DNA of 37,261 nt from Candidatus Hodarchaeota archaeon (GCA_016839785.1 JAEOTQ010000063.1:1-37261), one strand, 5' to 3'; counted from the first letter of the stretch, positions 923-28,546 are shown. Numbers and translations: made by a program. Notes: generated by a model not told the origin, from the letters alone.

Positions 923-1244
923 TAGATTAATCTCAACCATTTTTATCAAGAAATTATGAATTCTTTTCCTATTGCAAAGTATTTTGCATTCAATATTCTG
1001 GGTTTATGAGTTTTCACTAATTTTAGGAGAATTTAATCAGATTCCCATTCAAATTTGAATTTTCTAGAATCGGGGAATTTTCTTCAATTTCTGTGTGTTC
1101 GAATTGTAAATACGTTATGACAGAATGTTAGTATATTTTGTATATTCATTATTTCCATGCATAACCCTGATTCTTAAAAGAATATTCTGACAAAATATCA
1201 ATAGAACACTAAGGAAATTTTACTCACGTTTGGAACCTTATATA

Positions 1245-2498
1245 ATGAGTACCGCCGAAATTTATGGAACAAAAGGTAAGCTGCTTGAGGGTAAGCGCAT
1301 CCTAATTGGCGTAACAGGTTCCATTGCCGCAATTGAAACTCCCCATTTAGTACGAGAAATTCTTCGTTATTCTGGTGAACCTATTGTTGTCCTCTCAAAA
1401 GAATCCCTACGATTTGTAACAGCTGATTCTTTAACATGGTCCATGGGAGTACCTCCTTATACTGAAATTTCTGGATTATCCGAGCATATTAAGTGGAGTG
1501 TGGATCCAGAACAACGCGTAGATTTGTATTTACTCTGTCCTGCAACGGCAAATACTATTTCTAAACTTGCCTCTGGAGTAGCTGATGGACCAGTGTCATT
1601 AACCGCTTTGGCATGCATTGGAGCTAAGATTCCTTGTCTCATCGTGCCTGCAGCCCATAATGTGTTACTTGACAATCCTATTACCCAAAAAAACATAGAG
1701 TATCTTAAGCAATTAAACGTGCATTTTTTGTACAGTAAAGAAGAGGAGAAAAAATTCAAATTTCCTCCTTTAGATAGATTAATGGATCAAATTTTTACTT
1801 TAATAACCTCTCATAAACCTTTACAAGGTACTAAGTTTATAGTAACTGGTGGTGCGACTCGTGAATATTTTGATGATGTAAGATTTCTTTCTAATCCATC
1901 TAGTGGATTATCAGCCTTCCATATGGTTAATTCTTTACAGAATCTTGGAGCAGAAGTGTCTTTCATCCTCGGGGAAGGAAATACAGTAGATCTGGATCGT
2001 GTTACATCATCAGTATCTGTTGTAAGATCTACATCTGATATGCACACGAAGATCAAGGAACAGTTATCGAATGGGAGGGTAGACGGGTTAATTTCTGTAG
2101 CTGCAATCTCCGATTACCGACCAATCTATCAACAAGGGAAGATTCTTTCACAGCAGGATGAATTAACAATCAAACTAGAACCTACAGTTAAGATTGTAAA
2201 ATCTGTTAAAAGTGAATTTCCGTCTTTGTTTGTTGTTACGTACAAAGCTGAGGTGGGAATTAGCAAAGAAGAACTCATATCTCGTGCAACTCATTCTCTG
2301 CGAGATAATCATGCTAATATTGTATGTGCTAATTGGGTAGGAGAATCAGATAAGGGATTTGTTACGAAAGATAATGAAATATTCGTTGTGAGAGATAAAC
2401 AAGAAGTTATTGAGTTAGAAGGATCAAAGCAAACCCTTGGAAATGAAATAGCAGAGATAATCTCTGTTGAGTTCAATAGGAGGAAGGATTCACAATGA
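1245..2498 (+). CDS. coaBC: Bifunctional phosphopantothenoylcysteine decarboxylase/synthase, archaeal Dfp type
   Basis: GVTGSIAA, EH, CPATANTISKLASGVAD (flavoprotein domain); VTGGATREYFDDVRFLSNPSSG, AAISDY, CAN (CoaB domain). ATG 1245; alternative TTG start at 1230. Confidence 0.95.
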   Translation: MSTAEIYGTKGKLLEGKRILIGVTGSIAAIETPHLVREILRYSGEPIVVLSKESLRFVTADSLTWSMGVPPYTEISGLSEHIKWSVDPEQRVDLYLLCPATANTISKLASGVADGPVSLTALACIGAKIPCLIVPAAHNVLLDNPITQKNIEYLKQLNVHFLYSKEEEKKFKFPPLDRLMDQIFTLITSHKPLQGTKFIVTGGATREYFDDVRFLSNPSSGLSAFHMVNSLQNLGAEVSFILGEGNTVDLDRVTSSVSVVRSTSDMHTKIKEQLSNGRVDGLISVAAISDYRPIYQQGKILSQQDELTIKLEPTVKIVKSVKSEFPSLFVVTYKAEVGISKEELISRATHSLRDNHANIVCANWVGESDKGFVTKDNEIFVVRDKQEVIELEGSKQTLGNEIAEIISVEFNRRKDSQ

Positions 2499-3418
2499 AT
2501 ATATCGGTGATTGGAGCGGGAAGCATTGGTTCCTTATTTGCAGGGAGAGTTGCATATTCAGGTTTTGATGTGGATGTTGTGGGGAGAAAAGATCATGTTA
2601 GCAAAATTCAAGAAAAAGGACTCACTATATTAGAAGATAATCAGAATATCGTATCATTCTTTCCTGCAAAAACAGAATTTAATCCTAGGCAACAAAACTC
2701 TGATGCACTATTTGTAACCACTAAAGCTTACGATAATAATACAGTTGCAAAAACGCTATCCAATAAGATCAATAAAGAAACTCCGATATTTTTAATTCAG
2801 AACGGAATGGGAAATGAAGATATTTTTAAGAAGACATTACCAAAAAATCCAATTTATCGAGCAGTCACTACAGAAGCAGCAGAATTATTAAAACCTGCGG
2901 TAGTAAAACATGTTGCATTCGGAAAGACCTCTTTTGGGATTGTATCGGGTAAAGGAAATGGATTTAGTCGTCAAGTAGAGAAAATTCTTTCTTCATCGGG
3001 CTTTGATATAAAAGAAACTCCAAACATACAGTTGAAAATGTGGTATAAACTCCTCGCTAATGCGGCTATCTGTCCTCTTGGTACAATACTTCATGCGAAA
3101 AATGGGGAGATTTTGAAGCGACCTTCATTTGTCCGCATATTTAATGCCATTTTAGATGAGGGAATAGTACTCGCAAATCAGCTTCTTCCAGAGGAAGATT
3201 TTTCTGCTTCTCCTGATTTTATTAAAGAAGTTATCAACAAAACTCAAGACAATAAGTGTAGTATGCTTCAAGATGTGGAAAGAGGCCGCCGTACAGAAAT
3301 CGATTTCATTAATGGATTTATAGCACGAGAAAGTCAAGCGTATGGAATGAAAGCACCTGTTAATTCGGCCATTACAGATATAATCCGACATCTCGAAAGA
3401 AATCAGCAGCAGGATTGA
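2495..3418 (+). CDS. panE: 2-dehydropantoate (ketopantoate) reductase
   Basis: IGAGSIGS Rossmann motif, TKAYD, QNGMG, WYKLLANA, SMLQDVERGRRTEIDFING; ATGA overlap with coaBC. Confidence 0.95.
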   Translation: MNISVIGAGSIGSLFAGRVAYSGFDVDVVGRKDHVSKIQEKGLTILEDNQNIVSFFPAKTEFNPRQQNSDALFVTTKAYDNNTVAKTLSNKINKETPIFLIQNGMGNEDIFKKTLPKNPIYRAVTTEAAELLKPAVVKHVAFGKTSFGIVSGKGNGFSRQVEKILSSSGFDIKETPNIQLKMWYKLLANAAICPLGTILHAKNGEILKRPSFVRIFNAILDEGIVLANQLLPEEDFSASPDFIKEVINKTQDNKCSMLQDVERGRRTEIDFINGFIARESQAYGMKAPVNSAITDIIRHLERNQQQD

Positions 3419-3430
3419 GTTAAGTGAACC

Positions 3431-4315
3431 ATGAAGACTGAATTTTGGGTAGCTGCCCATCTCACGGGCCTCTTTGAAATAAATGACACTTCTACAGAAA
3501 TCCTAGAGGTCGGATCAAGAGGTGCAGGCATTTCAATTCAAAGAGGTGTAACGACTTCTATCCAACAATCCGATAAATCTTCAATAATTATACTATTTGA
3601 CGGAGTTCAACAAACATTAGCTGAGTCATTGATCACTCAAAAAGTCATCAAGTTGTTAATTCCAGAGGAAGATCAAAAAAATTTTCAGATCCACCATAAA
3701 TTTCATGTGCCTATTCGGAGTGGTTTTGGTACCTCCGCGGCTGGTGCTCTAGGAACTGCCTTCTGTCTAAATGAGTTTTTTACTCTGGAATTGAGCAAAC
3801 TTGAACTATTTCAAGCTGCACATAAAGCGGAAGTTTTGACGAAATCCGGTTTAGGTGATGTGATTGGTTTATTTCAGGGAGGATTAGAGATACGTACCAA
3901 AGAAGGAGCCCCAGGTTTTGGAAAAACCATTGGTATACGCAGGAACAATGATTGGAAAATGGCTACTGTGTCCTTAGGTACTTTATCTACTTCCTCCGTA
4001 TTATCTGATCCAGTAAAACGAGTGTCAGTGAACAATGCTAGTTCCAAGCTAATTGATAATTTAATTATGAATCCAGAATTCGATAACTTTGTCCATTCTA
4101 TTGCTGAATTCACTAGACGAGTTCAATTGTGGTCTTCTCAATTACACACCATGTTGAATAATCTTCCTGAAGATGTCATTGGGGCTCAAATTATGTTAGG
4201 TGATGCTTTATTTTTATTCTATCATGAAGAAGACGAGTTAGCAGATGTAAATATTTCATCTGATCTAATTCAGCCTGAAGAAATTTGTACGGAAACAATA
4301 AAGAGGTTAAAATGA
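3431..4315 (+). CDS. pok: Archaeal pantoate kinase (GHMP kinase family)
   Basis: HLTGLF, GSRGAG, PIRSGFGTSAAGALG, AHKAEV..KSGLGDV, GGLEIRTKEGAPG; directly upstream of PPS. Confidence 0.92.
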   Translation: MKTEFWVAAHLTGLFEINDTSTEILEVGSRGAGISIQRGVTTSIQQSDKSSIIILFDGVQQTLAESLITQKVIKLLIPEEDQKNFQIHHKFHVPIRSGFGTSAAGALGTAFCLNEFFTLELSKLELFQAAHKAEVLTKSGLGDVIGLFQGGLEIRTKEGAPGFGKTIGIRRNNDWKMATVSLGTLSTSSVLSDPVKRVSVNNASSKLIDNLIMNPEFDNFVHSIAEFTRRVQLWSSQLHTMLNNLPEDVIGAQIMLGDALFLFYHEEDELADVNISSDLIQPEEICTETIKRLK

Positions 4316-5097
4316 TGTCAAATCATGAAATTCCAAAAGATCATCCACGTTATGTTTCATTAACCATTCGAGATGCCATTATTAGTGGGATGCATCAGAA
4401 AGTCGTGGCTGAAGCAGGGTTAATTGCCCATGGAAGGGGAGAGGCATTTGATTATCTCTTGGGAGAAAAAACTCCAGACTTCGCAATAAAACAGGAAGAG
4501 TATGCTGTATTATCAATTTTAAACGCGGAAAAACCTATAATTTCAGTGAATGGGAATGTTGCAGCCCTATGTCCTGAAGATACAGTCAACTTTGGCAAAA
4601 TTCTAAACGCTCCCCTTGAAATAAACTTATTTTATCGGTCGCCTGAGAGAGAACAGGCAATAAAGAAAAAACTAATCGACGCAGGAGCAGATCAGATATT
4701 AGGTCTCGATCCAGAATATCAGGAAACAATTCCAGAAATTTCTCATCTACGACGAATAGTTGATTCTCGGGGTATTGCAGCTTCTGATTGTGTCTTTGTA
4801 CCGTTAGAAGATGGGGATCGTACTCAAGCATTAAGAAGAATGAATAAATCAGTTGTAACAGTTGATCTTAATCCTTTATCTCGTACGTCGCTCACGGCAA
4901 ATGTGTCAGTTACAAACAATATTATTAGGGCAATCCCAGAAATGATTACCATTGCAGAGGAGTTTACTCAACTCTCAAAAGATCAACTCATCGAGAAATT
5001 GAAGAAATATAATAATGAAAACCTGTTGAAAAATGCGTTAAAGTTTATGTCAGAACGATTAATGGCTCTATCGTCTAGCGATAAACTAATAATCTGA
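4312..5097 (+). CDS. pps: Archaeal 4-phosphopantoate--beta-alanine ligase (phosphopantothenate synthetase)
   Basis: IPKDHPRYVSL, GLIAHGRGEAFDYLLGEKT, ISVNGN, VPLEDGDR, DLNPLSRT; ATG at 4312 overlaps the pok stop (ATGA) and has GAGG upstream. Confidence 0.95.
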   Translation: MMSNHEIPKDHPRYVSLTIRDAIISGMHQKVVAEAGLIAHGRGEAFDYLLGEKTPDFAIKQEEYAVLSILNAEKPIISVNGNVAALCPEDTVNFGKILNAPLEINLFYRSPEREQAIKKKLIDAGADQILGLDPEYQETIPEISHLRRIVDSRGIAASDCVFVPLEDGDRTQALRRMNKSVVTVDLNPLSRTSLTANVSVTNNIIRAIPEMITIAEEFTQLSKDQLIEKLKKYNNENLLKNALKFMSERLMALSSSDKLII

Positions 5098-5106
5098 GGT
5101 GAAGAT

Positions 5107-5913
5107 TTGAAAAAGAAAACTGTATTAGATATAATGGAAATGAACGAATCTGGAAATAAAATTACCATGCTTACAGCGTATGATTATGTGATGGCTTCTA
5201 TTCTTGATGAAGCTGGAACAGATATGTTGTTAGTAGGTGATACTATGGGTATGGTGGTTTTTGGTCAAAAAACAACCCTCCAAGTCACTTTAGAGGATTC
5301 TATAAGGCATACTCAAGCAGTAGCAAGGGGTGCAAAGTCTGCAATGGTGATTGGAGATCTTCCCTTTGGTACGTTTCAAATCTCACGTGAAGATGCTATT
5401 AGGAATTCAGTGAAGTTGGTTCAATTAGGAAATGCTGAAGCGATTAAATTAGAAGGAGGAAGTGAACGAATCTCTGCAATAGAAGGTATATTGGACGCTG
5501 GAATTCCTGTTATGGGCCATTTAGGATTGACACCGCAATCTTATCACAAGTTTGGAGGATTTAAGGTACAAGGAAGATCAGAAGAAACTGCAAAAACCTT
5601 AATAGAAGAAGCTCGTGCTTTAGAGGAAGCAGGGATCTTTTCTCTAGTATTGGAAGCTATTCCATGGGAGGTTGCTAAGGAAATAACTGAATCAATTGCT
5701 ATACCGACAATTGGGATTGGTGCTGGGCCTTATTGCTCTGGTCAGGTTTTAGTTACTTATGATATGCTTGGATATTTTGATTTTAAAGCGAAATTTGTGA
5801 AAAGATATGCAAATCTCAAAGGTCAGATATTATCTGCAGTTCAAGAATATAACAAAGAAGTACGAAACAAGACCTTTCCTGATCTCACCTATAGTTACGA
5901 AAGGCCAAAGTGA
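5107..5913 (+). CDS. panB: 3-methyl-2-oxobutanoate hydroxymethyltransferase
   Basis: ITMLTAYD, LVGDTMGM, DLPF, KLEGG, MGHLGLTPQS, GIGAG..CSGQVLV.YDMLG; TTG start with GAGGTG upstream. Confidence 0.96.
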   Translation: MKKKTVLDIMEMNESGNKITMLTAYDYVMASILDEAGTDMLLVGDTMGMVVFGQKTTLQVTLEDSIRHTQAVARGAKSAMVIGDLPFGTFQISREDAIRNSVKLVQLGNAEAIKLEGGSERISAIEGILDAGIPVMGHLGLTPQSYHKFGGFKVQGRSEETAKTLIEEARALEEAGIFSLVLEAIPWEVAKEITESIAIPTIGIGAGPYCSGQVLVTYDMLGYFDFKAKFVKRYANLKGQILSAVQEYNKEVRNKTFPDLTYSYERPK

Positions 5914-12252: not shown

Positions 12253-13023
12253 TTAATGAGGAATAATTTCTTTAATCTGCTTCACAGTTTCCGACACATT
12301 TACCACAAGGTCTTCAAGTCCATATGAAGGATGACCATCAACTGCAAGCAATAGTCCCTCACTGATTTTATATGCAACCAGATGAGTTGACTCTGAGGCT
12401 ACAACTAGATACCGCAGATTGGTCATATATGTGCCAACATTCAAAATTCGGATTGCAGCAGCCATGCGAGGTTGGTCCATCTTGTATTCAAGGAGGATAT
12501 CTCCAGTGAAGGATAAGATCATCGCACCCCGTGCACCTGTCTCTTCCTTGGATACTAATTTCTTTAAATAGAATAAGGCGGCATTTTTTGACGATTTAAG
12601 CATCTGGCGGGTCTCTCCGCCAAATATTTCATCGACTGAGTCCTCGAATTCAACAAACATATCTGTATCTACAATGTCTATGGTGTCTAGCTTAGCTCCA
12701 TAATCCGAAAAGAATAGACTTGCGATAGTTGATAATTTAAATTGGATATCAAGGGGAGAAACCAGAGGAGAGACTAAAACAGCAAAAATCAGACCGTTTT
12801 TTTCTATGAATGAAAACCGAATATCCGTCATATCTACCACTCTGAGATCACTGAGGGAGGAGGTTTTAGCAAAAGAGAACATGGCGGTTAGAAATGCAAC
12901 GACAAGGTGAGCATCAGGGGCTGTCGAACTCCGTTCATAGGAACGTGTGAACAAAGTGGTTCCTTGATCTTTCTCAAAGATGAAAAATGCTTTTACAGCT
13001 TTAAATTCAGTTAAGGGAGACAT
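12253..13023 (-). CDS. Longin-domain + roadblock-like-domain protein
   Basis: N-terminal FFIFEKDQGTTLFTRSY...LVVAFLTAMFSFA...LRVVDM..IRFSF...LIFAVLV fits longin topology (bb-a-bbb-aa). C-terminal LKKLV...GARGAMILSFTGDILL...LRYLVV...HLVAY....LLLAV...helix fits roadblock topology. Confidence 0.72.
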   Translation of the reverse strand: MSPLTEFKAVKAFFIFEKDQGTTLFTRSYERSSTAPDAHLVVAFLTAMFSFAKTSSLSDLRVVDMTDIRFSFIEKNGLIFAVLVSPLVSPLDIQFKLSTIASLFFSDYGAKLDTIDIVDTDMFVEFEDSVDEIFGGETRQMLKSSKNAALFYLKKLVSKEETGARGAMILSFTGDILLEYKMDQPRMAAAIRILNVGTYMTNLRYLVVASESTHLVAYKISEGLLLAVDGHPSYGLEDLVVNVSETVKQIKEIIPH

Positions 13024-13032
13024 TTTTTCACA

Positions 13033-13611
13033 TCACAGGAACTTCTTTGGTTTGACATGGAGGATTTCAGTGGTTAATTTCTGGAAAGCTCTGTTGACAT
13101 TCCGTCCAGTTTTAGCAGAAGTCTCAATGAATTCGATAACATGCATGCTATCGATTATCTGCTTTAACTGTGACTTGGAAATAGCTCTTTCTTTAGTTAA
13201 ATCGGCCTTATTTCCAATAAGGATCCCCAAATGATTAGGTGAGGCTTTAAGGGCTTGAAGTTGCCAGCGGTTCTGAATCTGTATTAGAGTTTCTTTCCTT
13301 GTTAGATCGAAAACATACAATGCGCCCAAGGCACCTTTAAGATAGAGATGAGAGTAAGATACATGCCTCGCTTGTCCAGCTATGTCCCAAACTTGTAAGG
13401 AAACGGTTCGTTTGACATCATCTTCGTCAATAAAGGTTATTGTTTTTGTTAGAAAATCGACTCCCAAACTGACTGAATACTCATCCTTAAATTTATTTTC
13501 GATAAATCTTAGAATTAGTGAAGTCTTTCCGACCGCTCCGTCCCCCAGTAGCAGTATCTTCAATACATGCTTGATTTCTTTTTTCGTCATTCTTTTCCTT
13601 CCGAAAATCAC
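13033..13611 (-). CDS. Rab-like (Ras superfamily) small GTPase
   Basis: G1 GDGAVGKTS, switch I SLGVDF, G3 WDIAGQ, YLKGA, VFDLT, G4 NKAD, G5 ETSAK; no C-terminal Cys prenylation motif. Confidence 0.95.
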   Translation of the reverse strand: MIFGRKRMTKKEIKHVLKILLLGDGAVGKTSLILRFIENKFKDEYSVSLGVDFLTKTITFIDEDDVKRTVSLQVWDIAGQARHVSYSHLYLKGALGALYVFDLTRKETLIQIQNRWQLQALKASPNHLGILIGNKADLTKERAISKSQLKQIIDSMHVIEFIETSAKTGRNVNRAFQKLTTEILHVKPKKFL

Positions 13612-14124: not shown

Positions 14125-15828
14125 TTAGATTTTAATGGTTTGCCCTTCTAGTGGAATCACAAGACCTTTTTGTCCAGTCAATGTACTTATATTAGAAACC
14201 ATTTCAGCTCCAAGGTGGATTACCGCCGTTTTTTCTGCTAATTGGTATACTTGGAGTACTTCTTGCCAGTTCAAATGTGTTTCAAATTGACTTTGGTAGA
14301 AATTACATTCCAATATTGCTAAATTCGCATCGGATATTAATGGAACCAAGTTTTCTGTCCATCCAGTATCACCTGTGTACGCAATGATAGTCGATTGAGT
14401 TTTTAATCTATACCCTTGTGCCTCTGGAGTATGATTCATGGAAAAAGCTTTGATAATTATTTCTTCTTCTACAAAAGGTCGATCAGGTGTGATTTCCTTG
14501 TATACAATTGGGAATGGACGTTCTTTGGCCGCCTCTCGTTCATATAATATCGTGAAAAGTTCATTCACTATATTTTCAATCCCAGGTGGACCGAGTATTG
14601 TCAAGGGTTTAGTTCTCTGATGCTGAAAAGTTGATTCCAGAAGGAAATATGGAATTCCTCCGAAATGATCCCCATGAAAGTGGGTAATCACAATCCAATC
14701 GACTTCAGTAGTCTCTCGACCAGTTGCTTTTAGTGCCTGAAGCGTATGAGGGCCACAATCCAGCAAAATATTTCTATCCTGAAGTTCGACTAGAATGGAC
14801 GCACTTTTAAAGCCACCTGACCCAAATGCATCTCCTCTTCCTAAGAAAATTACTTTTGTATTAAGTTCCTTGGTAGGCAGAACTCTAGTTCCTACTGACT
14901 CTCCTCGTAAAGCTTTATCAAACTCTTCGAATCCAATAACCCAACTAGTAATATTCTGATGAGCAAGATCTATCAGATTTCTCAATTTTCCCTCCATTGC
15001 ATCCGTTACGTCATATTTTGATGCAATTGCATCCTTTTGAAAATTGATTTCATTGTTGTCAGAATTAAAATATTGATTTGATCGTGACCCAACCTCGATT
15101 CGTGTAATTAGTTCAGAATCGGCTAGAATTGGATCTTTAGAATAAATTCCAGTCATTTTTCCCTCTACTTGAGTTAGAAAGATCGCTTTATCAATTTGTA
15201 GTTTTTTAAAACTTCGAACAAGTGCATTCGGTACCAAATCGCCAGAAAAGACTTTCCACTCTCCTAATAGACCCGTATTTGTACCCTGAGTAAGGCCTAC
15301 ATCCCCAAAGAAAACAGGAACAGAATCTGTATTAATTATGATTGTTTCTAATGTTGATAAATCAGTTGCATCCATTCGGGGAGAGGAAGTTTTATCGGTA
15401 GGATATCCAAGCATGATTTGATGAGAGGAAAGCGAGATAGCATTGATACCATGTTGAATACCTAATCCTGTTATTAACTGGTTCTGGATGGAAACTGCAA
15501 GTTTGATAATAGGATAGACATTTTCAAGATCCGTTTCTGTTTTCAAGAGATGATAGACAAGGGAATGGCCAATTGAACCAGCTCCATGGATTATGACGAC
15601 TTTAGATAAAGGATTACTTTTTATATAAATGTTGAGAGTACGAAAAATCTCTTTAAGAGTACTTGTATTCAAGAGATTAGATATTGTCGTAGTTAAATCT
15701 TCCAATGAGGCTGCTCCACATCGAAAACGATCTACAATCAATAAATATTCGTTAATTTTATGTTCATCTTGTTTATATGTAATTAAGCTTCCCCCTAACT
15801 TAACAAGTATTGTTTTATTTTGATTCAC
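14125..15828 (-). CDS. Fusion of an isopentenyl-phosphate-kinase-like (amino acid kinase family) domain and an RNase Z/PhnP-like metallo-beta-lactamase domain
   Basis: N-terminal KLGGSLITYK, HGAGSIGH, PVFFGDV, SGD, DVTDAMEGKL. C-terminal FLGRGDAFGSGG, LLDCG, THFHGDH, NHTPE, YTGDT, LECNF, IHL. One uninterrupted frame. Confidence 0.85.
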   Translation of the reverse strand: MNQNKTILVKLGGSLITYKQDEHKINEYLLIVDRFRCGAASLEDLTTTISNLLNTSTLKEIFRTLNIYIKSNPLSKVVIIHGAGSIGHSLVYHLLKTETDLENVYPIIKLAVSIQNQLITGLGIQHGINAISLSSHQIMLGYPTDKTSSPRMDATDLSTLETIIINTDSVPVFFGDVGLTQGTNTGLLGEWKVFSGDLVPNALVRSFKKLQIDKAIFLTQVEGKMTGIYSKDPILADSELITRIEVGSRSNQYFNSDNNEINFQKDAIASKYDVTDAMEGKLRNLIDLAHQNITSWVIGFEEFDKALRGESVGTRVLPTKELNTKVIFLGRGDAFGSGGFKSASILVELQDRNILLDCGPHTLQALKATGRETTEVDWIVITHFHGDHFGGIPYFLLESTFQHQRTKPLTILGPPGIENIVNELFTILYEREAAKERPFPIVYKEITPDRPFVEEEIIIKAFSMNHTPEAQGYRLKTQSTIIAYTGDTGWTENLVPLISDANLAILECNFYQSQFETHLNWQEVLQVYQLAEKTAVIHLGAEMVSNISTLTGQKGLVIPLEGQTIKI

Positions 15829-17177: not shown

Positions 17178-18836
17178 ATGGATGTTAAACGATTTTTTCT
17201 GATTATTATACCCAGTACTTTTACATGGTGCTTAGCAGCAACGTTATTATTGATTTATTCTTTTGACATATTAGATTATGTTGAACAATCTGAAGATAAT
17301 CCCTTTATGGGTTTTGGGGTGATTATTCTAGGTGTTCTTCTACTGCTCGTAATTTTAGCGCTGTATTTTACTGGGCATTATCTTGATTCACATCCTGAGT
17401 TTCTAAAAAAGGGAATCATGATAGGTATGTTGGGAGCGTCTATAACCTCAATTCTATTTATTGTTTTTATTAACTCTACAATTTTATTTTCCCTCTCTCT
17501 CGTGGGATTAGCGTTCTTTTTTGCAATCCTTCTTACTAGTAGTGGTATGATGTTTGCTGGACTAACTAACTCAACAGCAAGAGGGAAAACATATGCTACA
17601 GCGATTTTTATCTTTATAATCTTGGTATTAGTAAGTATTGTTATAGGAAATGAAGTTTCTTCCAATTATACCGCATCTGATCCATTAAGTAATAGTTGGG
17701 TTGTCATAATACCAGGAATAGGCGTTTTAGGACTTATCTTGACGGTAGTCTTTTATTTATTATCACGTGACTTGAAATACTGGGTTCCCGACGCATGGCC
17801 CACAAAGTTCACGAAAATAGTTGGACGAAGGTCTGTTCAAGCATATTTGAGTACACATTTTTTACTGTATTGTATGCTAGGAATTTCTATAGCCATATTC
17901 CCTTTGATAGGATCTGTCTTAAATATAACCGAAACATTTCAATTACCAGCTCTTGGAGAGCTACAATTCTCCGTAGACAAACTTTTTTGGATTTTAGTTC
18001 TAGTTGGTGATTTAATACTTGTTCTACCAGCTGGAATGATTGCAGATAAAATTGGGAGGAAAAATTTAATCGTCCTTGCGATTTACGGCATCGTTTTTTC
18101 TGCGATGATAATTGGCCTTGAGAGATCAGAATTAAGCTTCATAATATCAGCTCTTACTATCGGTTTTTCGTTCGCGTTAATCCACCCTACTTTAGACTCT
18201 TCTTTGTGGGCTGATCTTTCTCCTCGTGATGGTTTGGGTAGATATTTTGCGTTAGGTTTTATATCATTAGCATTTGGTCTCGGAACAGGATACGGAGTGG
18301 GTCATTGGATATTAAGACCTCTCCTTGAGAATTTAGATTACGTAACTTATGTATTAATAATATTAGCAATTTTCGCTGCTTTTCCTTTGTTCTGGACAAC
18401 TGATAGTTATGAACCTCTTGATTTTACTTTGCTAATGGTGATCGAGGAAGGAGGACTTCCACTTTTTGATTATGCTTTTCAGCAAAAGTTAGATACAGAT
18501 ATTGAGTTAACTTTACTTTCAGGAGCTCTAACCGCTGTTTCAGCATTTATGTCCGAAATGATGAGAGAAAAAGGAGACCTAAATTTAGTCAGACACGGGA
18601 ATCACTTCATAATAACTGATAAAGATAGTAAAACGGGGATTTCCACAGTGATTTTTTCCAACAAGCATGATCCTGAATTAAAAAAGGCGTTACATGAATT
18701 TCAGATTAAATTTTGCGATCAGTATTGCCAGTATTTATCCACCTGGAACGGAGCGCGTAGTATTTTTGATGGAGCAGTTGATATAGCCGAAGAAGTCTTT
18801 GGACACCTCTCTCCCTCAACTAATATTGATATTTGA
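17178..18836 (+). CDS. MFS transporter fused to a C-terminal longin-like domain
   Basis: About 12 TM helices with MFS motif A (GMIADKIGRKN; degenerate GHYLDSH). From nt ~18408 a soluble domain LLMVIEEGGLPLFDYAF...LLSGALTAVSAFMSEMM...DLNLVRHGNHFII...STVIFS...WNG..SIF. Confidence 0.82.
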   Translation: MDVKRFFLIIIPSTFTWCLAATLLLIYSFDILDYVEQSEDNPFMGFGVIILGVLLLLVILALYFTGHYLDSHPEFLKKGIMIGMLGASITSILFIVFINSTILFSLSLVGLAFFFAILLTSSGMMFAGLTNSTARGKTYATAIFIFIILVLVSIVIGNEVSSNYTASDPLSNSWVVIIPGIGVLGLILTVVFYLLSRDLKYWVPDAWPTKFTKIVGRRSVQAYLSTHFLLYCMLGISIAIFPLIGSVLNITETFQLPALGELQFSVDKLFWILVLVGDLILVLPAGMIADKIGRKNLIVLAIYGIVFSAMIIGLERSELSFIISALTIGFSFALIHPTLDSSLWADLSPRDGLGRYFALGFISLAFGLGTGYGVGHWILRPLLENLDYVTYVLIILAIFAAFPLFWTTDSYEPLDFTLLMVIEEGGLPLFDYAFQQKLDTDIELTLLSGALTAVSAFMSEMMREKGDLNLVRHGNHFIITDKDSKTGISTVIFSNKHDPELKKALHEFQIKFCDQYCQYLSTWNGARSIFDGAVDIAEEVFGHLSPSTNIDI

Positions 18837-27485: not shown

Positions 27486-27992
27486 ATGATGATTAACCTC
27501 TATGAATTCACGGGTTTTATTGAAGAAAATTTTGACCTAGTGTCGGGAGTACCCTGTTCCTATTTCAAAGACTTTTTATCCTATTTAACAAATCAAGAGG
27601 GAGTTTCACAACTAAAACACCTTATAGCAACGCGGGAAGATGAAGCAATTGCTATTGCTACAGGAGCAGCTCTTTCTAAGAAACGAGCATTGGTTTATAT
27701 GCAAAATAGTGGTGTAGGAAATATAGGGGATGCATTAACGTCACTGGTTCAGCTATATAAGTTACCAATGATGATTTTAATAAGTTACAGGGGTTTAATA
27801 GAGGATATTGATTTTCCTGAACATTCGATAATGGGAGAGATTAATAATTCACTATTAGAATCATTAAATCTCCGTTATTGGGATTTAGAAATAGAAAATT
27901 GGCAAAAAAATATGAAAAATGCTCTAACAGAAATGAAAGATCAATCCTTACCGGTAGTCTTAATGGTGAAACAGGGAGTGTTGAGTCAATGA
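27486..27992 (+). CDS. ThDP-dependent sulfopyruvate/phosphonopyruvate decarboxylase, alpha subunit (ComD/Ppd-like)
   Basis: GVPCSYF, TREDEAIAIATGA, YMQNSGVGN, LISYRG....DFPEHSIMG. Confidence 0.88.
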   Translation: MMINLYEFTGFIEENFDLVSGVPCSYFKDFLSYLTNQEGVSQLKHLIATREDEAIAIATGAALSKKRALVYMQNSGVGNIGDALTSLVQLYKLPMMILISYRGLIEDIDFPEHSIMGEINNSLLESLNLRYWDLEIENWQKNMKNALTEMKDQSLPVVLMVKQGVLSQ

Positions 27993-28546
27993 AGGGGTAT
28001 GAAGTAATCTTAAAGTTACAGGAATATCTGGGTGAAAACGATCTAATAGTCAGCTCAAATGGGAATATTAGCCGGGAGGTTTATCATTATCTACCCAAGC
28101 CACAAGTTTACCTTAGAGGATCGATGGGCCTACCTGTAGGTGTGGGATTAGGCTTGGCAGTAATGAATCCAGAAAAACGAATTACTGTCATTACTGGAGA
28201 TGGTAACCTTCTGATGGGATTCGGCTCGGTTGTTACGGTTGCTTACTATAAACCAAACAATCTAAAGATACTAATCTTAGATAATTCACAATATTTTACA
28301 ACAGGTGGACAACAAACAGTATCTTCAGCAATTAATTACTCTAAGTTTCTGGATTCGCTGAATATCATGAATTTTCAATCTCTAGAAGCCTCTCCGAGTA
28401 CTGTTAATGACTCTTTAGACAATTTTTTTAATACTAAAGGATTGGCGATATTACATTATACCATTGAAGAAGGAAAAAAGGAGTTGTCTAATATTCCTTG
28501 GCATCCAACCAAGATTGCAGATAAATTTCTACATAGATTTGGTTGA
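27989..28546 (+). CDS. ThDP-dependent sulfopyruvate/phosphonopyruvate decarboxylase, beta subunit (ComE/Ppd-like)
   Basis: ATG 27989 overlaps the alpha stop (ATGA); GNISRE, GSMGL, GDGNLLM...LDN ThDP motif, TTGGQQT. Confidence 0.88.
   Translation: MKGYEVILKLQEYLGENDLIVSSNGNISREVYHYLPKPQVYLRGSMGLPVGVGLGLAVMNPEKRITVITGDGNLLMGFGSVVTVAYYKPNNLKILILDNSQYFTTGGQQTVSSAINYSKFLDSLNIMNFQSLEASPSTVNDSLDNFFNTKGLAILHYTIEEGKKELSNIPWHPTKIADKFLHRFG

Follow-up and report, generated by a model that had tools for sequence, protein, structure and literature searches.

In the archaeal mevalonate route, mevalonate kinase (MVK) is followed by phosphomevalonate dehydratase (PMDh), then by anhydromevalonate phosphate decarboxylase (AMPD) and finally by isopentenyl phosphate kinase (IPK), and the route needs an IPK according to the accessible part of PMC12547664. 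Archaeal IPKs (NF040647; structures 8u0k, 3ll9, 7lnt, 3k4o and 3lkk) have conserved positions that include K5, G44, G46 and D144, as given in the available portion of PMC4823809. Among hydrolases of the metallo-beta-lactamase (MBL) fold, YhfI and Rv1339 define the atypical class II phosphodiesterases with a [T/S]HXHXDH motif (PMC9293780), YhfI preferring cAMP/cGMP (PMC9117128; both papers as far as accessible). The gene described here combines an IPK-like kinase with an MBL hydrolase in one frame and lies on the minus strand, at 14125-15828, of a 37,261-nucleotide contig of a Candidatus Hodarchaeota archaeon (GCA_016839785.1, JAEOTQ010000063.1:1-37261; this whole stretch is referred to as the window). 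Both kinds of domain are known; the combination is new and, among the genomes searched, confined to one genus. The fusion is real and conserved, and was probably fixed in the ancestor of one Hodarchaeales genus. A reading made from the sequence alone (the sequence-only reading) had described a single frame joining the two domains across a junction near 14870, and this frame encodes 567 amino acids (aa) with no internal stop. All the motifs it named are present: KLGGSLITYK followed by an insertion, HGAGSIGH, DVTDAM and THFHGDH. The features are:

14125..15828 (-), whole fused open reading frame (ORF), 567 aa, IPK-like kinase plus MBL hydrolase; GTG start, zero internal stops
14878..15828 (-), kinase domain, residues 1-317, amino-acid-kinase fold (PF00696), insert-type IPK clade from structure and tree
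15673..15771 (-), two-helix insertion after K19, residues 20-52, from predicted helices (H22-36, H42-52) and alignment
15565..15588 (-), loop HGAGSIGH, which holds the catalytic His of IPKs (H88) and aligns with the GH motif of solved IPKs
14995..15012 (-), DVTDAM motif (D273, M278; K281 next), from alignment
14857..14877 (-), seven-residue linker, residues 318-324, of fixed length in 20/20 full-length copies
14125..14856 (-), hydrolase of the MBL fold, residues 325-567, a short form that lacks the flexible arm of RNase Z and has GxGDAF as its start motif (PF12706/PF00753)
14665..14685 (-), THFHGDH metal-binding motif (further ligands H466, D487 and H538; putative acid-base pair E507/H518), the ligand and acid-base roles being presumed by analogy with RNase Z-family enzymes

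Comparison with 60 genomes (21 of the same genus and 39 from other genera of the order and class; G, L and P numbers denote the genomes, loci and proteins compared, G000 being the genome that holds the window) revealed a full-length fused frame without stops in 19 of the 21 same-genus genomes, at 44-84% identity. Of the other two, G007 has residues 257-567 only, preceded by a stretch of N, and G005, whose completeness is 74%, gave no match; the fusion was found in none of the 39 genomes from other genera. A kinase profile run over 400 Asgard genomes gave strong scores only in this genus, in G022 (whose protein was itself in the profile) and on one 2.1-kb contig of G180, which has the gene order of this genus and is probably misbinned. 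Both domains are present in 60 of the 63 proteins matched by the kinase half, close homologs carrying the database name Candidatus Hodarchaeales, and an alignment of 49 of these 63 (the full-length ones) underlies the residue counts given below. The linker shows no indel in any full-length copy. In the 15 of 190 genome pairs with unsaturated synonymous sites, the ratio of nonsynonymous to synonymous change (dN/dS) was 0.06-0.34 in the kinase and 0.10-0.24 in the MBL half; purifying selection acts on both. Synteny of the surrounding block extends over 20 loci and the window, except that the gene directly upstream of the fusion varies, and the block contains no mevalonate or other isoprenoid genes. 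The sequence-only reading did not recognise this architecture, which is indeed unusual; it was not found in a literature search that covered papers without their supplements (these proteins may be listed in the tables of PMC11052028 and PMC12962969), and the accessible parts of PMC11052028, PMC6107057 and PMC12962969 make no mention of it. Database annotation of the gene reads only 'MBL fold metallo-hydrolase'; JGI automatic annotation names both halves.

Pfam matched AA_kinase (PF00696) at residues 5-298 (E 1e-12) and Lactamase_B_2 (PF12706) at residues 352-536 (E 1.2e-19), with MBL models overall spanning 339-536 and PF00753 also matching, and an AlphaFold2 model of the fused protein (49 homologs) had a mean pLDDT of 90.6 and a pTM of 0.89. 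PDB matches of the kinase profile were headed by IPKs (E 1e-24 to 3e-10), with FomA last (3.4e-6). Structural Z scores were 22.9-27.2 for IPKs (best 8u0k, Z 27.2, root-mean-square deviation 2.4, 238 residues aligned), 20.9 for FomA and at most 20.3 for the other amino-acid kinases listed, and the genome's own UMP kinase aligned to the fused kinase with an hhalign probability of only 3.8%. By these measures the predicted fold resembles IPK more than it does FomA, UMP kinase, NAGK or glutamate 5-kinase, and profile and model comparisons together support assignment of the fused kinase to the IPK clade rather than to FomA, UMP kinase or NAGK, in line with the sequence-only reading.

G12, G13, K19, G82, G84, G87, H88, G175, D176, S195, G196, D197, D273, M278 and K281 are each present in 49 of 49 copies, and K10 in 48, the remaining copy having a gap. 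The equivalents of IPK K5, G44, G46 and D144 and the catalytic His are kept (K10, G82, G84, D197 and H88); of the conserved IPK positions in the available portion of PMC4823809, the exceptions are A53 and M77, each replaced by Val, G45, replaced by Ala as is common among ordinary IPKs, and D164, which is lost. The DVTDAM position is also variable among ordinary Asgard IPKs. By alignment mapping, the alkyl-pocket positions (Y/F105, I/V108, V/I177 and V193) all fall within the classes of assayed IPKs (R1 Y/F/A, R2 I/V/T, R3 I/V/T, R4 I/V) reported in the accessible part of PMC8500459. Like archaeal IPKs, the fused kinase has the fold, Lys/Gly loops, catalytic His, GD and SGD motifs, D...K pair and four pocket residues; unlike them, it falls below the family cut-off, has a helical insertion of ~30 residues (~28-33) after K19, has lost the Asp164 equivalent with an insertion there, carries an invariant K109 and a C-terminal MBL domain, and is encoded outside the mevalonate cluster. 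Kinase activity towards isopentenyl phosphate (IP) and dimethylallyl phosphate (DMAP) seems likely.

Stand-alone kinases that carry this insertion, namely P0066, P0070, P0071 and L034 (from G022), came out of a search of 1.84 billion representatives. The N-terminal insertion aligns with those of all four and, in shorter form, with that of IPKs from another Asgard family, f9 (G062-G064); as stand-alone relatives carry it, the insertion is older than the fusion. Members of the P0070 cluster are mostly labelled Hodarchaeales, and the best matches of P0070 in the 400 genomes were f9 IPKs, then fusions; a metagenome scan for its genomic context found nothing. A careful tree (49 rows, including 6 of the 20 fusion kinases; 268 columns, insert columns dropped; long branches present and no non-IPK outgroup) grouped fusions, stand-alone insert-type kinases, P0124 and three f9 IPKs at 97/93. 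Support for a wider group was 88 in a 107-row quick tree, and a 36-row quick tree (13 of 49 rows dropped, including three long ones) gave 95 SH-aLRT. Approximately unbiased (AU) tests, for groups named after earlier trees had been seen, rejected a sister grouping of the fused kinase with a second IPK paralog of the genus (p 0.005) and with the ordinary IPK of the order (p 0.0005).

The f9 IPKs pass the NF040647 cut-off (164-171 bits) and are the sole genes above it in all three f9 genomes. In G063 the IPK gene lies directly between those for PMDh and type 2 isopentenyl diphosphate isomerase (IDI-2); it is one unrelated gene away from PMDh in G062 and ~3.4 kb away in G064. The A53V and M77V pocket changes are common to fusions, f9 IPKs and P0066/P0070, and f9 IPKs also share with the fusions a shortened loop after the catalytic His. 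Thus f9 IPKs, P0066, P0070, P0071 and L034 resemble the fused kinase in clade, insertion and post-His loop, but are unfused and only 23-30% identical to it, and the f9 copies differ further in passing the cut-off and in lying in or beside the mevalonate cluster.

The G000 block at G000:C43:15884-23817 (L094) encodes MVK, a UbiD-family decarboxylase (AMPD), both PMDh subunits, UbiX and IDI-2, with phosphomevalonate kinase and diphosphomevalonate decarboxylase (DMD), both above cut-off, inserted in the cluster, which contains no IPK. Identity to the f9 cluster is 69-75% for MVK, AMPD and PMDh, while MVK is only 28-35% identical to that of other Heimdallarchaeia; this likeness to a distant family suggests transfer of the MVK-AMPD-PMDh block. 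The loci behind this comparison are L094, L119-L121 and L125. Co-occurrence of the archaeal and eukaryote-type mevalonate routes in Hodarchaeales is described in the accessible text of PMC11052028. In this order the large PMDh subunit (PMDh-L) is present in 22 of 24 genomes but eukaryote-type DMD in only 6, so that most order genomes need an IPK, and because the mevalonate cluster of the genus lacks one, the fusion probably performs the conversion of IP to isopentenyl diphosphate (IPP).

Ordinary and insert-type IPKs did not co-occur within the order: the IPK of G023 is an ordinary one linked to MVK, with no insert type in that genome; in G022 MVK is followed directly by IDI-2 and a stand-alone insert-type kinase is found elsewhere (L034, G022:C387, 607-2705), directly upstream of cofD (F420 synthesis); and the genus carries the fusion. 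A possible role in F420 synthesis, as a lactate kinase beside cofD, was discarded, as the arrangement is limited to this single locus, cofD of G000 sits on a different contig and has no kinase next to it, and the kinase pocket is hydrophobic.

The check for another IPK in the genome that the sequence-only reading proposed was positive: G000:C247:2706-3503 (ORF G000:C247:2691-3539; L001) scores 153 bits against a cut-off of 120. Second paralogs above cut-off are present in 17 of the 22 genus genomes (G000 and 16 of its 21 relatives), in which the fusion is therefore not the sole IPK, and genomes of the genus carry two unrelated IPK lineages. The eight of these 17 that were inspected all have a TGVG motif and form their own clade, and genes of this clade lie beside a polyprenol/phytol-kinase-like membrane gene (L069, L073, L089, L090, L110, L111, L113 and L344) that matched nothing in Pfam or NCBIfam and was recognised only by Atlas. 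The clade co-occurs with another IPK in G023 and in 5/5 further Asgard genomes tested, the other IPK of these five lying outside the mevalonate cluster. An accessory salvage role of the second paralog fits both its membrane-gene neighbour and its co-occurrence with other IPKs. In G021 and G005 the slot that synteny predicts for the paralog does not contain it, and the G005 assembly lacks the fusion as well; G010, seemingly a single contig with the fusion alone, has a 100-base N gap at the paralog locus, and in G016 and G009 the paralog and its neighbouring genes are both absent from the assembly. Across the wider TGVG/HGVG IPK lineage (L001, L069-L073, L089-L093, L110, L111, L113 and L344) a DUF92 gene is found nearby in some genomes, and IPK plus membrane kinase likely constitute a two-step prenol salvage route in Asgard archaea.

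Other IPK fusions were observed in Asgard genomes. IPK-IDI-2 fusions (L096, L098; ~635 aa) occur in many of them and, like the fusion described here, have IPK as the N-terminal half, but this IPK is of ordinary type and is joined to the enzyme that follows it in the pathway. Among the Asgard IPK fusions L096, L098 and L097 is also a 443-aa protein of family f12 with an unrecognised domain of ~175 aa before the IPK.

The MBL half is intact, as the sequence-only reading had stated: H383, H385, D387, H388, H466, D487, E507, H518 and H538 are each present in 49/49 copies, as is Thr or Ser at 382, giving with the four motif ligands the [T/S]HXHXDH of atypical class II phosphodiesterases, a motif shared by RNase Z. 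Foldseek placed BA1088 (1zkp) and YhfI (6kns) at the top. In NCBIfam the best matches were RNase Z models, below cut-off (TIGR02651, 118 bits against 292.95), and scores for NF041851 (53.3 against 400), Apyc1 (34 against 50) and PhnP (TIGR03307, 31.3 against 272) were also below. In common with YhfI, BA1088, M. tuberculosis Rv1339 and Apyc1, the MBL half has a short armless fold and [T/S]HXHXDH, but it is only ~20% identical to them and below the NF041851 and Apyc1 cut-offs. It belongs to a widespread, uncharacterised family that is closest to YhfI-type phosphodiesterases. Stand-alone members (~244 aa, GxGDAF; 2917 matches at E<=1e-20) are found across several bacterial phyla, the best true stand-alone match being at most 43% identical, and 45 of 400 Asgard genomes have the family, fusions included; there was no match in the three f9 genomes, those with the closest stand-alone IPK in a mevalonate cluster. 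No other recognised domain partner was seen among 68 matches in a search for longer relatives. For the origin of the MBL half, a 40-row quick tree (two proteins and rows from 38 of 46 loci) had an unusable outgroup and gave no placement.

No isoprenoid genes were among the 45 most widespread neighbour clusters of stand-alone MBL genes (80 bacterial and 11 Asgard loci; rough ORF calls in GC-rich loci, most labels by eye), nor in eight individually read Asgard loci, two of them outside the 11-locus set. The contexts seen were a set of AmgK-like, MurU-like and AnmK genes, a BMP ABC transporter, and ligase/MATE/pyrD-like genes. The first was found with stand-alone MBL genes in several Myxococcota-like genomes (L134, L139, L140, L186 and neighbours). 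In the AmgK/MurU/AnmK pathway a MurNAc-6-phosphate phosphatase is expected, and this context is a possible substrate lead for the family. For the MBL half itself our best guess, a weak one by analogy, is a small nucleotide phosphodiester, because the nearest folds are BA1088 and YhfI and the latter prefers cyclic nucleotides.

Direct results are the fused frame with its intact active sites, the purifying selection on it, the clade of its kinase and the genes present for the pathway; that each half is active, what the MBL half cleaves and that the two work independently are inferences. We favour, with moderate confidence, an active IPK and an independent phosphodiesterase in one polypeptide. 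The N-terminal half would be a divergent but active IPK, converting ATP and IP (and DMAP) to IPP (and dimethylallyl diphosphate, DMAPP) as the last step of the archaeal route. The C-terminal half would be a two-metal phosphodiesterase, most likely acting, as do YhfI and Rv1339, on small nucleotide phosphodiesters (cyclic NMP-like) and not on isoprenoids; the halves would most likely work independently, fusion only tying expression and oligomeric assembly together.

Several observations weigh against this. The fused kinase scores 76.6 bits with NF040647 (cut-off 120), and 65-90 bits across the 20 genomes with the fusion, scores that are lowered by its insertions. In its ATP-binding region it has lost the Asp164 equivalent (5/49 copies have D at position 220, which an insertion follows), and K109, variable in ordinary IPKs, is invariant. 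Identity to f9 IPKs (25-28%) is no closer than to one ordinary IPK (27.7%), and as IDI-2 of the genus and f9 are 40-42% identical, extra change has accumulated on the fusion-kinase stem (0.72-1.25 changes per column). The second paralog could do the job, so a role of the fusion as IPK is not forced, and G021, with a eukaryote-type decarboxylase, does not need an IPK. For the MBL half, the substrate is not fixed by a motif shared with RNase Z, and a VIA-align ranking (ZipD, arylsulfatase, BA1088, ELAC1) placed ZipD and arylsulfatase above the YhfI-like chain. Retention of the fusion and its fixed linker across 44-84% identity would fit functional coupling equally well. One protein cluster, P0355 (4 records, 2 contigs), begins mid-kinase, which could mean that the kinase half is broken or split in one strain, or that the assembly is wrong there; a metagenome scan for it found one close locus, fully fused.

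The sequence-only reading had proposed salvage or balance of prenyl-phosphate pools, an idea so far unsupported. In such a cycle the MBL half would strip the terminal phosphate from DMAPP/IPP or cleave a prenyl-nucleotide, supplying DMAP for prenylated FMN or salvaging prenyl groups, and the kinase would re-phosphorylate the product, one protein setting the IP/IPP balance. We regard this as unlikely, though it has a precedent and a motive: plants set the balance by IPK and Nudix hydrolases (available part of PMC8248349), a similar logic of kinase and opposing phosphohydrolase but with separate genes and a Nudix fold, MBL prenyl-diphosphate activity being only putative; AMPD is thought to need prenylated FMN (bioRxiv 10.1101/2024.09.23.614462, as far as accessible), and UbiX is in the cluster. 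The PhnP-family diphosphatase 6b9v is a structural neighbour of the MBL half (Z 25.4), in another IPK fusion from Asgard archaea (L096) the partner, IDI-2 above cut-off, is a neighbour in the pathway, and the fusion is kept in 19/21 relatives. However, no isoprenoid neighbour of stand-alone MBL genes was seen at 80 bacterial and 13 Asgard loci (rough ORF calls, labels by eye), the pathway operates in f9 genomes without an MBL match (0/3), and 11 Nudix proteins in the genome could fill the role. The MBL family is also widespread in bacteria, most of which are not known to use the archaeal mevalonate route. A Methanosarcina Nudix enzyme reportedly supplies DMAP; no archaeal DMAP-supplying hydrolase was found in our literature search. 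Slightly less probable is a specific form in which the MBL half would be the first MBL-fold prenyl-diphosphate or prenyl-nucleotide hydrolase, providing DMAP for the prenylated FMN of AMPD or clearing by-products, with the kinase re-phosphorylating. If true, one bifunctional enzyme would, by analogy with the IPK/Nudix cycle of plants, balance the archaeal and eukaryote-type routes, both of which some members of the lineage closest to eukaryotes carry, and a family of thousands of bacterial proteins would have its first substrate.

It is similarly improbable that the TGVG paralog is the working IPK and the fused kinase has shifted to a phosphorylated substrate made by the MBL half, e.g. a phosphomonoester from a cyclic phosphate. 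Such a shift would agree with the paralog, but not the fusion, passing the IPK cut-off, with the long fusion stem, invariant K109 and lost Asp164 equivalent, and with the position of the G022 stand-alone relative directly upstream of cofD. The hydrophobic pocket positions are nevertheless all IPK-like; the paralog lies beside a polyprenol/phytol-kinase-like gene in eight inspected loci, pointing to prenol salvage, co-occurs with another IPK in G023 and 5/5 Asgard genomes, and has an empty slot in G021 and G005; and the cofD link is one locus, without a counterpart in G000.

Far less probable is that the MBL half is a tRNA 3'-processing enzyme, the activity suggested for assay in the sequence-only reading, or another RNase replacing ordinary RNase Z. 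This deserved testing because ordinary full-length RNase Z is missing from all 24 order genomes (vs 53/59 other class genomes with it) and the best NCBIfam matches are RNase Z models. The MBL half shares the core fold and metal ligands of RNase Z/ZipD (TIGR02651; Z 31.2 to 2cbn), but in alignment with B. subtilis RNase Z (1y44) it jumps from 153 to 206, skipping residues 154-205, i.e. it has no flexible arm, on which ground the role was rejected. A divergent protein of ~350-410 aa matches RNase Z model positions 48-290 in 21/24 order genomes, and the G000 copy (G000:C111:13999-15117; L235) aligns to the flexible arm of the B. subtilis enzyme. The divergent protein is probably the RNase Z of the order, and the existence of a separate arm-bearing enzyme makes this function of the MBL half unlikely; an RNase Z-like Haloferax protein also had no tRNA-processing activity (PMC3296008, accessible part). 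An assembly artefact, or recent read-through of two adjacent genes, can be dismissed, since independent genomes carry the fusion (19/21 relatives), 60/63 database proteins have both domains and linker length is fixed.

The fusion points to a probable IPK of this Hodarchaeales genus that database annotation names only as an MBL-fold hydrolase and that lies below the IPK cut-off. The mevalonate cluster of the genus resembles that of another Asgard family more than those of its own class, and the two IPK lineages and f9-like cluster matter for how isoprenoid synthesis is reconstructed in archaea related to eukaryotes. The fusion also offers the only isoprenoid-linked handle found on a large uncharacterised MBL family; if its halves are independent, it is a lineage marker of modest interest.

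Public-run contigs covering 14710-14889 and 14851-15146 match the linker without differences, although the source study had the highest word share and they are perhaps not independent of the assembly. One RNA run gave two short contigs on the fusion gene at depth 3-5, which cannot show transcription, and a promoter scan with a bacterial model, applied to this archaeal host, gave 11 sites against 14.2 expected. An M42 peptidase gene lies upstream of the fusion, and a small convergent ORF and genes for a Rab-like GTPase and a longin-like protein lie downstream. The Rab-like GTPase adjoins the longin-like protein at 12253-13611, a pair that keeps its synteny with the fusion at 19-20 of the 21 loci. 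At 17178-18836 is an MFS transporter with a C-terminal extension that appears longin-like by eye, present in one or two copies in 18/21 loci. The N- and C-terminal parts of a thiamine-diphosphate enzyme occupy two overlapping ORFs at 27486-28546, which may reflect a frameshift or a split gene. At 1230-5913 is a coenzyme A cluster of archaeal type with CoaBC-like, PanE, GHMP kinase, phosphopantothenate synthetase and PanB genes.

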